Shown here in pieces: positions 55,695-59,756 of a stretch of DNA of 64,000 nucleotides. The position numbers and the translations under genes are program-made. Position 1 is the first letter of the stretch, and each line of letters starts with the position of its first letter. The notes under the pieces are model-generated. The model ran no database searches, was not told where the DNA came from, and worked only from the letters and a program-made list of their open reading frames with translations. Source of the stretch: Escherichia phage NHEP10; the sequence record PQ511148.1. One strand, given 5' to 3'.

Positions 55695-58600
55695 ATGGCT
55701 ACTTTAAAACAAATACAATTTAAAAGAAGCAAAACTGCAGGAGCACGTCCTGCCGCTTCAGTATTAGCCGAAGGTGAATTGGCTATAAACTTAAAAGACC
55801 GTTTACTTTTTACTAAAGACGATACTGGAGCGATTATCGACCTTGGCTTTGCTAAAGGCGGTAATATCGACGGAAACGTTATTCATACAGGCAATTATAA
55901 CCAAACTGGCGATTATACTTTAAATGGCACCTTCACTCAAATTGGCGATTTCAATCTCAAGGGTATTGCTCGCGTAACTCGTGATATTATTGCTGCGGGT
56001 CAGATAATGACCCATGGTGGCGAACTTATTACAAAAAGTTCAGGTACAGCACATGTTCGTTTTCATGATTTAGCTGACCGTGAACGTGGAATCATTTTTT
56101 CTCCTGCTAATGATGGATTAACTACACAAGTTCTTAATATTAGAGTTCAAGATTACAAAGCTGGTTCAGAAAGCACTTTCGCTTTTAATGGAAATGGTTT
56201 GTTTTCTTCACCAGAAGTTTTTGGGTGGAAATCTGTATCAACTCCGGTAATTTATACCAATAAAGTTATCACCAATAAAAAAGTTAAAGATGATTATGAC
56301 ATCTATTCGATGGCAGACAATGTCCCATTGTCTGAAAGCACTACTGCTATTAATCATCTACGTGTCATGCGCAATGCAGTAGGTTCTGGTATTTTCCATG
56401 AAGTTAAAGATAATGATGGAATAACTTGGTATAGTGGAGATGGATTAGATGCTTATCTTTGGTCATTTACCTGGAGCGGCGGAATTAAATCAAGTCACTC
56501 AATTTCTATCGGTTTAACACCCGGTAATAAAGATTATTCAATATTAGGACCATCTAGCATTGCTTTAGGAGATAATGACACCGGGTTTAAATGGCATCAG
56601 GATGGATATTTTTTTACGGTAAACAACGGTACAAAAACTTTCCTTTCTGGTCCGGCGGAAACCACTAGCCTTAGAAAAATGGTTATGGGTTATTCTGTAA
56701 ATGGTACCGATTTGACTACTCCTCCAACTGAAAACTATGCTCTTGCTACTGTTGTGACATATCATGATAATAACGCGTTTGGAGATGGTCAGACTCTTTT
56801 AGGATATTATCAAGGCGGTAACTATCATCATTATTTCCGCGGCAAGGGTACCACAAACATTAATACTCATGGCGGTTTGTTAGTTACTCCTGGTAATATT
56901 GACGTTATTGGTGGTTCGGTTAATATTGATGGTCGTAATAATGCTTCTACATTGATGTTTAGAGGTAACACAACTGGTAGTAGTTCAGTTGATAATATGA
57001 CAATTTCTGTATGGGGTAATACGTTTACTAATCCTAGTGTAGGTAATCGTAAAAATGTCATGGAAATTTCTGACGCAACTAGTTGGATGAGCTATATTCA
57101 AAGACTTACTACTGGTGAAGTAGAAATGAACGTTAACGGTTCATTTGAATCATCTGGTGTTACTGCTGGAAATAGAGGAGTTCACACAACGGGCGAAATT
57201 TCATCTGGAGCAGTGAATGCTCTTCGTATTTGGAACGCAGATTATGGAGCCATTTTTAGACGTTCAGAAGGAAGTCTTCATATTATTCCAACTGCTTATG
57301 GCGAAGGCAAAGATGGCGATATCGGTCCACTTCGTCCGTTTAGTTTGGCTTTAGATACAGGTAAGGTGGTTATTCCTGACTTAGATTTATCCCATACCAC
57401 TTTTGCAGCAAATGGTTTTATTAAATTTGGCGGTCATGGAGCAGGCGCGGGTGGTTATGATATTCAGTATGTTCAAGCAGCTCCTGTTTTCCAGGAAATT
57501 GATGATGATGCTGTAAGCAAATATTATCCTATTGTTAAACAGAAGTTTTTAAACGGTAAATCCGTTTGGTCTTTAGGTACCGAAATTGAATCAGGTACAT
57601 TCGTTATTCATCATCTGAAAGAAGATGGTTCACAAGGCCATACATCAAGATTTAATATGGATGGTACTGTTAATTTCCCTGATAATGTTCTGGTCGGTGG
57701 TGGTGAAGCTGCTATTGCTCGTAATGGTAATATTTTCTCTGATATTTGGAAAGTATTTACAACTGCAGGTGATGTAACTAATATCCGTGACGCTATTGCT
57801 ACTCGTGTTTCTAAAGAAGGCGACGCGATGACCGGCACTCTTTGGATTAATAAAGATGCTGCTGGAATAGTTCTTAATCCTCCTTTGGCCAGTGATTCAT
57901 CATTTATTCGTTCCGATACGGCCGGGGTCAATAATTGGTATATTGGTAAAGGCGGTGCCGACAATGGTCTAGGTTTTTACAGTTATGTTACACAAGGCGG
58001 TGTATATATAACAAATAACGGAGAAATATCACTTTCTCCTCAAGGTCAAGGAACATTTAATTTTAATAGAGACCGCCTTCATATAAACGGTACACAATGG
58101 GTTGCGCATAAATCTGGCGCCTGGGGTGACCAATGGGGTTTAGAAGCTCCTATATTTGTAGATTTTGGATCCGTCAGCAATGACTGCTATTATCCTATTA
58201 TTAAAGGAAAATCTGGTATTACTAACGAAGGATATTTTTCCGGCGTAGATTTTGGTATGCGACGCATTACTAATAACTGGGCACAAGGTATTATTCGTGT
58301 AGGTAACCAGGAAAATGGCCATGACCCACAAGCTATCTATGAATTCCACTCTAATGGCACTTTTTATGCTCCGAGCTTACTTAAGAGTAACAGAGTATCG
58401 GCTGGTGGTGGTGACCCAGCATGGGGCAGTCCTTGTATTGTATTAGGTGACAATGATACCGGATTTCTTTGGGAAGCAGATGGTATTTTCAACGCATATG
58501 CAAACGGCCAAGGCGTATTCAGTTTTAGAGCTGGTCTCGCACAAACGTTCGGTAACGTTAACTTCCACTGTAACGCCGGTATGTATGTTCGCGATAACAT

Positions 58601-58946
58601 TGACGTTAACGACGTTTATATTCGTTCTGATATTCGTTGTAAATCGGAAATTAAGCTTATCGATAACGCACAAGAGAAATCTAAACTCTTAGGTGGTTAT
58701 ACTTATCTGCTTAAAAACCCCGTTACTGATGAAGTTAAACCGTCCGCCGGTTTAATCGCCCAGGAAGTTCAAAAAGTATTTCCTGAACTTGTTTCTGAAG
58801 ATAAAGAGACCGGATTGCTTCGTTTGAATTATAATGGTATTATTGGTTTAAATACTGCTACTATCAACGAGCATACTGACGAAATCAAGGAATTGAAATC
58901 TGAAATTGCTGAATTGAAAGCATTAATTAAATCATTGATAAAATAA
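55695..58946 (+). CDS. 37: long tail fibre distal subunit gp37 with C-terminal intramolecular chaperone (S74-like) domain
   Basis: 1083 aa; C-terminal ~106 aa carries the autoproteolytic chaperone signature (Ser at 58626-58628 in YIRSDIRCK, then GLIAQEVQKVFPELV) and a coiled-coil tail. Confidence 0.93.
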   Translation: MATLKQIQFKRSKTAGARPAASVLAEGELAINLKDRLLFTKDDTGAIIDLGFAKGGNIDGNVIHTGNYNQTGDYTLNGTFTQIGDFNLKGIARVTRDIIAAGQIMTHGGELITKSSGTAHVRFHDLADRERGIIFSPANDGLTTQVLNIRVQDYKAGSESTFAFNGNGLFSSPEVFGWKSVSTPVIYTNKVITNKKVKDDYDIYSMADNVPLSESTTAINHLRVMRNAVGSGIFHEVKDNDGITWYSGDGLDAYLWSFTWSGGIKSSHSISIGLTPGNKDYSILGPSSIALGDNDTGFKWHQDGYFFTVNNGTKTFLSGPAETTSLRKMVMGYSVNGTDLTTPPTENYALATVVTYHDNNAFGDGQTLLGYYQGGNYHHYFRGKGTTNINTHGGLLVTPGNIDVIGGSVNIDGRNNASTLMFRGNTTGSSSVDNMTISVWGNTFTNPSVGNRKNVMEISDATSWMSYIQRLTTGEVEMNVNGSFESSGVTAGNRGVHTTGEISSGAVNALRIWNADYGAIFRRSEGSLHIIPTAYGEGKDGDIGPLRPFSLALDTGKVVIPDLDLSHTTFAANGFIKFGGHGAGAGGYDIQYVQAAPVFQEIDDDAVSKYYPIVKQKFLNGKSVWSLGTEIESGTFVIHHLKEDGSQGHTSRFNMDGTVNFPDNVLVGGGEAAIARNGNIFSDIWKVFTTAGDVTNIRDAIATRVSKEGDAMTGTLWINKDAAGIVLNPPLASDSSFIRSDTAGVNNWYIGKGGADNGLGFYSYVTQGGVYITNNGEISLSPQGQGTFNFNRDRLHINGTQWVAHKSGAWGDQWGLEAPIFVDFGSVSNDCYYPIIKGKSGITNEGYFSGVDFGMRRITNNWAQGIIRVGNQENGHDPQAIYEFHSNGTFYAPSLLKSNRVSAGGGDPAWGSPCIVLGDNDTGFLWEADGIFNAYANGQGVFSFRAGLAQTFGNVNFHCNAGMYVRDNIDVNDVYIRSDIRCKSEIKLIDNAQEKSKLLGGYTYLLKNPVTDEVKPSAGLIAQEVQKVFPELVSEDKETGLLRLNYNGIIGLNTATINEHTDEIKELKSEIAELKALIKSLIK

Positions 58947-58950
58947 TAAA

Positions 58951-58966
58951 AGGGCCTTCGGGCCCT
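58951..58966 (+). promoter_or_regulatory. stable tetraloop hairpin between genes 37 and 38 (no U-tract)
   Basis: AGGGCC-UUCG-GGCCCU immediately before the gp38 SD. Confidence 0.5.
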
Positions 58967-58976
58967 GGAGGTTTAT

Positions 58977-59756
58977 ATGGCAGTAGTAGGAATACCTGGT
59001 TGGATTGGGACTTCAGCCGTTGCTGAAACGGGTCAAAGATGGATGACGGCTGCTTCAAGGGAACTTCGTTTAGGAAACCCTTCATGGATGTCCCAATTCG
59101 CGGGCCGTTCAAGAGAAATAATTCATACACTTGGTGCAGACCATAACTTTAACGGGCAATGGTTCCGTGACCGTTGCTTTGAAGCTGGCGGCGCTCCTAT
59201 AGTGTTTAATATCACCGGAAATTTGGTATCATATAGTAAAGATGTTCCATTATTCTTTATGTATGGCGATACGCCAAATGAATATGTTACTTTGAATATT
59301 CATGGTGGAGTTCATATGTGGGGACGAGGTGGTAATGGTTCTGTAAACGGAAGCCCAGGCACAAATGGCGGTGACGTAATCCAAAATGATATCGGCGGAA
59401 GACTTCGTATTTGGAACTATGGCGTTATTGCATCAGGCGGTGGCGGTGGCGGTGCAGTGTCATTACAGAATAGCTGGGCTCCAAATGCTACAGCAGGTGG
59501 CGGTGGTGGTAGACCATTTGGCATCGGCGGAGGTGGCGTTAATTGGCCGGGTGGTAATGCTAGTTATGACGCCCCAGGCGGCGCCGGTTACACTTCCCAA
59601 TTCGGCGGAGGCAATGGTGGTGATGCTGGCGCTTGGGGTGGAGATGGATGGGGTAATCACTTATCTAGATCTGGCGGTGGTGCTCCTGGCAGAGCAGTAT
59701 TCGGAAGTTCACCGTCATGGGGTGCTACAGGCACAATCTACGGCTCCTGGATTTAA
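58977..59756 (+). CDS. 38: T2-type receptor-binding adhesin gp38 with glycine-rich motifs
   Basis: 259 aa; conserved N-terminal fibre-attachment region ([11 protein letters not shown]...[35 protein letters not shown]) then poly-Gly motifs separated by variable segments. Confidence 0.9.

Follow-up and report, generated by a model that had tools for sequence, protein, structure and literature searches.

A fibre-tip module with self-cleaving-type gp37 and a probable OmpF-class gp38 adhesin in the Mosigvirus-like Escherichia phage NHEP10

Positions 55695-59756 of a 64,000-nucleotide (nt) stretch of Escherichia phage NHEP10 (record PQ511148.1; this whole stretch is called the window below) most probably represent the distal receptor-recognition module of a Mosigvirus, a T-even-like phage, built in the two-component manner of T2 and S16 and carrying an adhesin of the OmpF class. 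We put the probability of this reading at roughly 85%. The module consists of two genes on the plus strand, gene 37 for the distal subunit of the long tail fibre (55695-58946, 1083 amino acids (aa)) and gene 38 for a T2-type adhesin at the fibre tip (58977-59756, 259 aa), both ranges counted with the stop codon. The open reading frame (ORF) of gene 37 matches phrog_1699 from end to end, with a reported E of 0, and gene 38 was assigned by Pfam, PHROG and PDB searches, an AlphaFold2 model and Foldseek. A preliminary description made from the letters alone had placed the two ORFs at these positions on the plus strand, and all features that it named are found where it put them, with matches far beyond chance. 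Gene structure, protein family and fold, the catalytic dyad and its register, the motif layout and the near-identity to adhesins typed as OmpF-dependent were computed on the window itself; cleavage, the stoichiometry of capping and the binding of OmpF are carried over from relatives.

The assignment of gp38 to the adhesins of the T2/T6/S16 type is supported by sequence, gene position and predicted fold. Two Pfam families divide the protein between them, Gp38_N (PF21721; residues 1-42, 74.2 bits against a cut-off of 25, E 8e-21) and GP38 (PF05268; residues 47-259, 278.4 bits against a cut-off of 25, E 6e-83), and phrog_2056 covers residues 1-259 (E 4e-109). By sequence, the closest PDB entries are gp38 of phage PP01 (9v85, E 4e-73) and gp38 of phage S16 (6f45_D, E 4e-49), the latter from a gp37-gp38 crystal complex that is matched by both proteins of the window. 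The AlphaFold2 model, based on 44 diverse homologues, reaches a mean pLDDT (predicted local distance difference test) of 84.7 and a pTM (predicted template modelling score) of 0.77, and is weak only in residues 1-17, as one would expect of a domain dependent on the gp37 trimer. When the model was compared with the whole PDB by Foldseek, the same two structures came back, 9v85 with E 7e-26, a TM (template modelling) score of 0.92 on the target, a root-mean-square deviation of 1.3 Å and 63% identity, and 6f45_D with E 2e-21 and TM 0.76-0.79; besides these, nothing was returned under E 2. According to the model, gp38 would combine a beta-helix with a polyglycine-II sandwich.

Four parts can be told apart along the chain. 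The attachment domain (residues 1-46, 58977-59114), recognized by PF21721, carries Trp9 (59001-59003), Trp22 (59040-59042) and Trp37 (59085-59087), which are invariant in nine reference adhesins, including those of S16, T2 and T6, and present in 42, 44 and 36 of the 44 diverse homologues, respectively. They correspond to the three tryptophans, or prongs, of S16 gp38 that plug into pockets of the gp37 tip (S16 structure paper). The beta-helix core follows (residues 47-115, 59115-59321), with model strands at pLDDT above 90. The specificity domain (residues 116-238, 59322-59690) is 37% glycine and shows the alternation of five glycine-rich motifs (GRMs) and four hypervariable segments (HVSs) described by Trojet 2011, with boundaries that we set from alignments after that scheme: GRM1 at 59322-59339 (residues 116-121), HVS1 at 59340-59435, GRM2 at 59436-59453 (154-159), HVS2 at 59454-59495, GRM3 at 59496-59522 (174-182), HVS3 at 59523-59603, GRM4 at 59604-59621 (210-215), HVS4 at 59622-59672 and GRM5 at 59673-59690 (233-238). 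A conserved block closes the protein (residues 239-259, 59691-59753), with model strands in residues 239-255. Across the 44 homologues, the mean frequency of the major residue is 0.95-1.00 in GRM1-3 and 0.32-0.52 in HVS2-4, with GRM4 and GRM5 less strict (0.69 and 0.73), and the 34 indel columns of the specificity domain all lie in variable segments, none in a glycine motif. Both elements on which the preliminary description had based its T2/T6-type assignment, a conserved fibre-binding amino terminus and glycine-rich motifs flanking variable segments, are borne out by these data, and the motif layout in the 44-homologue alignment is indeed that of the T2 type. The ORF list also contains a 125-aa plus-strand ORF at 59386-59763, in an alternative frame within gene 38, which we rejected as a gene and regard as a by-product of the GGN-rich coding stretch. 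Local G+C content at 59386-59763 is 0.46, compared with about 0.38 around it.

The same evidence bears on the question of whether gp38 is a virion protein at all. In T4, the carboxy-terminal needle of gp37 binds OmpC/lipopolysaccharide (LPS), and gp38 only assists folding and is not part of the virion (structure papers on PP01 and S16); the contrast that had been drawn between this region and T4 is correct according to those papers. Were the window arranged as in T4, gp38 would be an assembly chaperone only, missing from the particle, and the gp37 tip would bind the receptor. Residues 1-61 of gp38 do match phrog_1121, a family containing the T4-type gp38, and many database records call close homologues “assembly catalyst” or “assembly chaperone”. 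However, it is only these 61 residues that match phrog_1121; over its full length, gp38 matches the adhesin family, whose GRM/HVS domain and polyglycine sandwich fold it has, and the labels were inherited from the annotation of T4. Moreover, gp37 has no detectable T4 needle domain and ends in a chaperone predicted to be cleavable instead. A search of full-length gp37 against the PDB, with E up to 1, returned S16 gp37 and T4 gp34 and no T4 gp37 chain, a null result that relies on the T4 gp37 tip structure being in the PDB copy searched. Receptor specificity in this clade also follows gp38, not gp37 (PMC7917993; bioRxiv 10.64898/2026.04.02.716166). Fold, domain content and the lack of a T4-type gp37 tip thus rule against the T4-like arrangement, which we consider extremely improbable. 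What the window shares with T4 is a pair of homologous genes at the same locus and the first ~60 residues of gp38; it differs in a gp37 without a detected T4-type tip and in a gp38 that is not short and has the full set of glycine-rich motifs.

For gp37, sequence comparison supports an S74-type intramolecular chaperone with a Ser-Lys dyad at the extreme carboxy terminus, in the last 106 of the 1083 residues (978-1083, 58626-58943). Peptidase_S74 (PF13884) matches residues 978-1033 (profile positions 1-57/58) with 46.3 bits against a cut-off of 22 (E 5e-12). Ser978 (TCT, 58626-58628) and Lys983 (58641-58643) stand at the start of this domain at S-x4-K spacing, which is a feature of the family known from work on endosialidases and on T5 pb1. 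They are flanked by DVYIR before the serine and followed by D-I-R-C-K (GAC GTT TAT ATT CGT, then TCT GAT ATT CGT TGT AAA), so that the predicted autocleavage junction, Arg977-Ser978, reads CGT TCT at 58623-58628. The conserved S74 core GLIAQEV occupies residues 1019-1025 (58749-58769), and a heptad-like helix ends the chaperone (about 58866-58943). The length of the domain, the position of the serine codon and the GLIAQEV motif are all as the preliminary description had given them.

Cleavage at this junction would leave Arg977 as the predicted end of mature gp37, and we infer it by analogy with relatives. Ten fibres were compared (the window, NHEP36, AlbertHofmann, PHB12, RB51, FL33, fPS-2, fPS-90, T2/T6 and S16). 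The sequences flanking the cleavage point are wholly replaced among them, with identities of 12-100% in the tip and 31-100% in the chaperone, and despite this the Ser, Asp, Arg and Lys of the motif are unchanged in all ten; in the alignment of the chaperone core, S, K, G, A and Q are invariant, the last three being those of GLIAQEV. For S16 gp37, Salem et al. (PMC7917993) quote the cleavage site DLNVS^SDRRIKK from studies of its structure, and the alignments put Ser978-Lys983 in register with that site. As a single-sequence query, the chaperone found only S16 (E 3e-23) plus a marginal MYRF in the PDB. A profile built from eight fibres reached 6f45_A (2e-48), MYRF 7dc3 (1e-9), the tail fibre 8jov (3e-7) and the neck-appendage chaperone of GA-1, 3gud (7e-4). 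Ser978 aligns with residue 1 of 3gud (SDERHK) and with the SDERLK of 8jov, and since the 3gud chain begins at this very position, it lends independent support to the serine as the first residue of the released piece. One residue of the motif is out of the ordinary, namely residue 982, which is Cys in the window and Leu, Ile or Val in the other fibres. This could speak for a degenerate remnant of an S74-like domain that stays uncleaved in the mature fibre. We regard such a remnant as very unlikely, given that the Ser-Lys dyad is intact and, like the G-x-x-A-Q core, does not vary among the fibres, that the Pfam score is twice the cut-off, that cleavage at the aligned bond occurs in S16, the nearest relative with a solved structure (PMC7917993), and that docking of gp38 needs an exposed gp37 tip (S16 structure paper).

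The distal tip that would be left after cleavage (residues 909-977, 58419-58625) ends in DVYIR. Together with the chaperone (residues 909-1083) it aligns with the crystallized S16 gp37 tip, 6f45_A, at E 7e-30, and the DVYIR/DLNVS strand is kept in every fibre compared. By analogy with S16, from which the role is taken, residues 909-977 are presumed to be the docking surface for gp38. These 69 residues before the chaperone align with a tip that is trimeric in S16, which suggests that gp37 is trimeric here as well. Tip and chaperone are of the S16/RB51-like subtype, not of the T2/T6 subtype. Along its length, gp37 is a mosaic: residues 1-700 are 76-97% identical to those of the Tequatrovirus phages RB51, FL33 and fPS-2, and residues 901-1083 only 13-62%. 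With RB51 alone, the shaft (residues 1-700) is 86-97% identical and the tip 44%.

Together, these data suggest a model for assembly and host recognition. Three gp37 chains would fold into the distal half-fibre, guided by their own carboxy-terminal chaperone of 106 residues. Once the trimer has formed, Ser978, activated by Lys983, would cut the Arg977-Ser978 bond, and release of the chaperone would expose a flat gp37 tip ending in DVYIR. A single gp38 monomer could then cap the three-fold tip, its amino-terminal domain docking by way of Trp9, Trp22 and Trp37. The remainder of gp38 would form the beta-helix with its polyglycine-II sandwich, built of the invariant glycine-rich motifs, and the variable segments would be the distal loops that touch an outer membrane protein of the host. 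For this allele, the porin OmpF is the most likely partner, and infection probably requires the LPS core as well.

OmpF is our best prediction for the receptor, and we hold it with good confidence because the specificity domain is near-identical to that of adhesins typed as OmpF-dependent and because the residue at a known switch site is Gln; the LPS core is probably also needed for infection. An alignment with adhesins of known receptor had been proposed in the preliminary description, and it points to OmpF. From gp38 of AlbertHofmann/Bas47, for which dependence on ompF was shown with complementation, the window differs by 5 aa, 4 of them in residues 116-259. From RB51 it differs at 28 positions, of which 22 lie in the first 48 residues, that is, in the attachment domain; the differences in the specificity domain are only S122T, S126N, A219G and W220R, and these are the 4 after residue 82. 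RB51 needs OmpF according to Keio spot tests and also to randomly barcoded transposon sequencing (RB-TnSeq; bioRxiv 10.64898/2026.04.02.716166). Identity is 91-93% to fPS-2 and fPS-90, which use OmpF plus LPS in Yersinia (PMC7917993), and 92% to FL33, whose receptor is OmpF, again with the differences almost all in the attachment domain. Adhesins for Tsx (T6), FadL (T2), OmpA (M1, FL08, AV119, FL18) and OmpC (S16) differ from the window's gp38 at 96-140 positions over the whole protein.

The switch site is known from RB51, where the gp38 substitution Q206L changes the receptor from OmpF to OmpW, and the reverse change restores OmpF (bioRxiv 10.64898/2026.04.02.716166). By alignment, the equivalent residue in the window is Gln208 (CAA, 59598-59600), that is, Gln and not Leu. 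Two public records deserve a comment at this codon. An OmpW-using stock of RB68 has Leu at gp38 206 (bioRxiv 10.64898/2026.04.02.716166); the deposited RB68 record (NC_027979, gp38 3644-4417) has Gln (CAA) at codon 206, identical to RB51. The fPS-2 record (gp38 3601-4380) has an ambiguous base at the same codon 206, which is translated as X.

Several observations weigh against OmpF, or against OmpF as the only receptor. For Bp7, a phage whose adhesin is of this type too, the use of LamB, OmpC and the LPS core is cited (Chen et al. 2020, as reported in citing papers). The combination of S122 and S126 in HVS1 with A219 and W220 in HVS4 occurs in no receptor-typed phage that we compared, and a single substitution, Q206L, can flip the receptor in this family (bioRxiv 10.64898/2026.04.02.716166). 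FL31 shows a drop of only one log on an ompF mutant, and modest effects of TolC are reported for FL31, FL33 and FL34 and effects of FhuA for RB51 and RB69; the weak drop and these additional dependencies mean that OmpF may not be the sole determinant. As a reservation on the module reading in general, and not on OmpF in particular, the exact gp37 and gp38 proteins are missing from a collection of 15 billion sequences, which evidently predates the NHEP36 record.

These points could be accommodated by the same module having another or a broader receptor: LamB and/or OmpC, which are cited for Bp7, OmpW, which the RB68 stock uses, or more than one porin at once. We consider this unlikely, if worth keeping in mind. 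The Bp7 gp38 (P0005) is of the same type through HVS1-3, and the one-residue redirection of RB51 from OmpF to OmpW falls in HVS3 (bioRxiv 10.64898/2026.04.02.716166). However, dependence on OmpF was found for at least six phages that carry this specificity domain and were typed independently, in four laboratories and with four methods, and the window carries the Gln of the switch site rather than the Leu. Each of the four differing residues is present in other members of the clade, W220 even in the OmpF-dependent AlbertHofmann, and the TolC and FhuA effects may be indirect, via envelope composition, as the original authors themselves caution. That the “OmpF clade” as a whole is polyvalent, or that this particular allele has drifted to another porin as RB68 did by one substitution, is doubtful in our view; the idea derives from the untyped combination of S122/S126 with A219/W220 and from the Bp7 report on LamB and OmpC, as relayed in the papers citing it. 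As for Bp7 itself, its database gp38 is of the same type up to about residue 225 and then frameshifted. We conclude this because its carboxy terminus (DG[IV]...) looks like a translation of this DNA in frame +1; it follows the alternative frame at 59386-59763 of the window. The divergent end of the annotated protein was therefore rejected as a genuine variant. OmpF remains our preferred receptor for the allele in the window.

The source phage has close relatives. NHEP36 (PQ511151) is 99.5% identical at the DNA level over a separate 24-kb stretch and 99.6% over the module, with an identical gp37 gene (3252/3252 nt); over the separate 24-kb stretch, AlbertHofmann/Bas47, which is Mosigvirus phapec2 in GenBank, is 96.4% identical. 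NHEP36, PHB12, NHEP11 and AlbertHofmann/Bas47 are Mosigvirus relatives with the same backbone and the gene order 34-35-36-37-38-t-asiA. In gp38, NHEP36 differs from the window by 17 nt and 3 aa (A219G, D223A, N227K), PHB12 by 2 aa and AlbertHofmann by 5 aa.

The differences from NHEP36 are strongly clustered, and those within the module all fall in a single patch of 200 nt. Upstream of 59576 there are 2 single-nucleotide polymorphisms (SNPs) in 5.1 kb; the 200 nt of 59576-59775 contain 17 SNPs and a 6-nt indel; and the next 864 nt contain 0 SNPs. This looks like a recombination patch. It comprises gp38 residues 200-253, that is, the end of HVS3, GRM4, HVS4, GRM5 and the carboxy terminus, together with the spacer between genes 38 and t, and it alters three residues of HVS4. 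No exact donor was found in the phage collection, where PHB12 and NHEP11 came closest at 98.3%. As the window's version of the patch is 96-98% like that of most Mosigvirus relatives, NHEP36 is probably the recombinant.

Modularity is also apparent over larger phylogenetic distances. RB51, RB69, fPS-2, fPS-90 and FL33 have practically the same specificity domain, and OmpF-class adhesins are 92-95% identical to the window over gp38 nt 346-600 and 91-94% over nt 601-780. RB69 is a Mosigvirus too; in the other four phages the adhesin belongs to a Tequatrovirus fibre. The gp37 tips and chaperones of the class differ, with only 13-44% and 31-62% aa identity to those of the window. Compared with RB51, fPS-2 and FL33, the first 138 nt of gp38 are 55-70% identical and the rest 86-95% (86-89% in the beta-helix core, 59115-59321), and the flanks are at 65.5% (chaperone) and 72% (holin) nt identity. 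The jump in identity within gp38 therefore indicates that the same OmpF specificity domain has been joined to at least three types of attachment domain and fibre tip, and the gp38 specificity domain is known to be exchangeable (Trojet 2011; bioRxiv 10.64898/2026.04.02.716166).

Among solved structures, gp38 of PP01 (PDB 9V85) is the best structural match, with the TM score and identity given above. PP01 binds OmpC of E. coli O157 via its loop-B, and the window deviates from it in HVS2, the counterpart of this loop, and in the loops that follow. S16 (PDB 6F45) has the same architecture, Trp prongs, glycine motifs and fold, and the same chaperone subtype (GGYTYL..., LNYNGI..LNTA.IN.HT.EI.ELK), with 51% identity over the chaperone; it differs in a gp38 that is only 50% identical and has other variable loops, in its receptor, the OmpC of Salmonella, and in a shorter gp37 (749 aa, against 1083 aa in the window). 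T2 and T6 share with the window the two-component design, the glycine motifs and the cleavage motif S-D-x-R-x-K. Their variable segments are different, with gp38 deviating from the window's at 125 and 97 positions, their receptors are FadL and Tsx, and their chaperone is of another subtype, 31-33% identical to that of the window. More distant S74 proteins, such as endosialidases, the GA-1 neck appendage (3GUD), the tail fibre 8JOV and the eukaryotic MYRF (7DC3), have the Ser-Lys dyad, the G-[LIV]-I-A-Q motif and the carboxy-terminal helix in common with gp37, but nothing beyond the chaperone, as the passenger domains are unrelated.

Two further regions of gp37 can be named. Residues 1-104 (55695-56006) match phrog_35830 and are 90-100% identical to those of Mosigvirus fibres and of several from Tequatrovirus, also in fibres that diverge in the remainder; from what is known of T4, we take this conserved region to be the joint to gp36. 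In the shaft, residues 450-549 (57042-57341) match Gp34_trimer (PF21446; E 1.9e-7, 32 bits against a cut-off of 27) and, in the PDB search, the structures of the carboxy-terminal trimerization domain of T4 gp34 (4uxe/5nxf, E ~1e-11). Because a domain of the gp37 shaft matches the trimerization domain of gp34, genes 34 and 37 appear to share fibre modules.

The module lies in a run of plus-strand ORFs, listed by program at 50004-53837 (1277 aa), 53846-54970, 55030-55686, 55695-58946, 58977-59756 and 59790-60461, which Pfam and PHROGs identify as the T-even long-tail-fibre genes 34, 35, 36, 37 and 38, followed by the holin gene t. Gene 38 is thus situated between the end of gene 37 (58946) and holin t (PF11031, E 6e-89; from 59790/59802). 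For the holin, the ORF list gives ATG 59790 as start; the likely true start is ATG 59802 (MAAPK...), which has GGAGG ahead of it and yields a gene of 660 nt, as annotated in NHEP36, AlbertHofmann and PHB12. After holin t comes a 90-aa ORF on the minus strand, which is AsiA, an anti-sigma factor, in the annotations of relatives. The hinge connector gp35 contains, at residues 58-131 (54017-54238), a match to the ILEI domain (PF15711, 30.2 bits against 27, E 7e-7), and interleukin-like epithelial-mesenchymal transition (EMT) inducer is a surprising family name to find on a phage fibre protein. Further downstream, a stretch of 321 nt at ~63291-63611, which holds a 71-aa minus-strand ORF (63334-63549), is absent from NHEP36; AlbertHofmann has a hypothetical gene of 216 nt at the corresponding place, between motA and a topoisomerase gene.

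Between genes 37 and 38, a hairpin (AGGGCC-UUCG-GGCCCU, 58951-58966, plus strand) with a 6-bp stem and a C(UUCG)G tetraloop is predicted, directly followed by GGAGG, the ribosome-binding site of gene 38 (58967-58971). Its folding energy of -12.3 kcal/mol is not better than that of shuffled sequences (z -0.30), so that only its positional conservation backs it: exact copies stand at the same place in AlbertHofmann, NHEP36 and PHB12, and none in the loci of S16 or the Tequatrovirus phages. At its 3' end, the module is bounded by TATAAATA, the consensus of T4-type late promoters, at 59775-59782 on the plus strand, upstream of the holin gene, where the fPS-2 record has an annotated late promoter as well. 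The window has 19 copies of this motif where 7.25 would be expected, among them those at 49962-49969 before gene 34 and at 54996-55003 before gene 36. With no copy in the 36/37 and 37/38 intervals, this arrangement suggests co-transcription of genes 36, 37 and 38. The whole 64-kb window contains no tRNA gene and no Rfam family at the gathering threshold. NCBIfam, a library that does not cover these phage families, matched neither gp37 nor gp38.

The two-gene host-recognition tip is well-studied biology that was already known, and the genome is a near-duplicate of deposited ones. That such a module sets the host range is established for this family by genetics since the 1980s, crystal structures from 2018 and 2026 and receptor-prediction models from 2025-2026. 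What the present analysis adds is the probable receptor, the mature end of gp37 and a segment map of gp38. Its practical yield is a confident annotation: the mature gp37 is predicted to have 977 residues, gp38 is the adhesin, and the primary receptor is probably OmpF. The pair formed with NHEP36 is also a small worked example of two almost identical phages that differ mostly in one variable loop of the adhesin. For the phage, the module is the primary determinant of host range, and it is the place to read or to engineer when the E. coli strains that it infects are to be predicted or changed.

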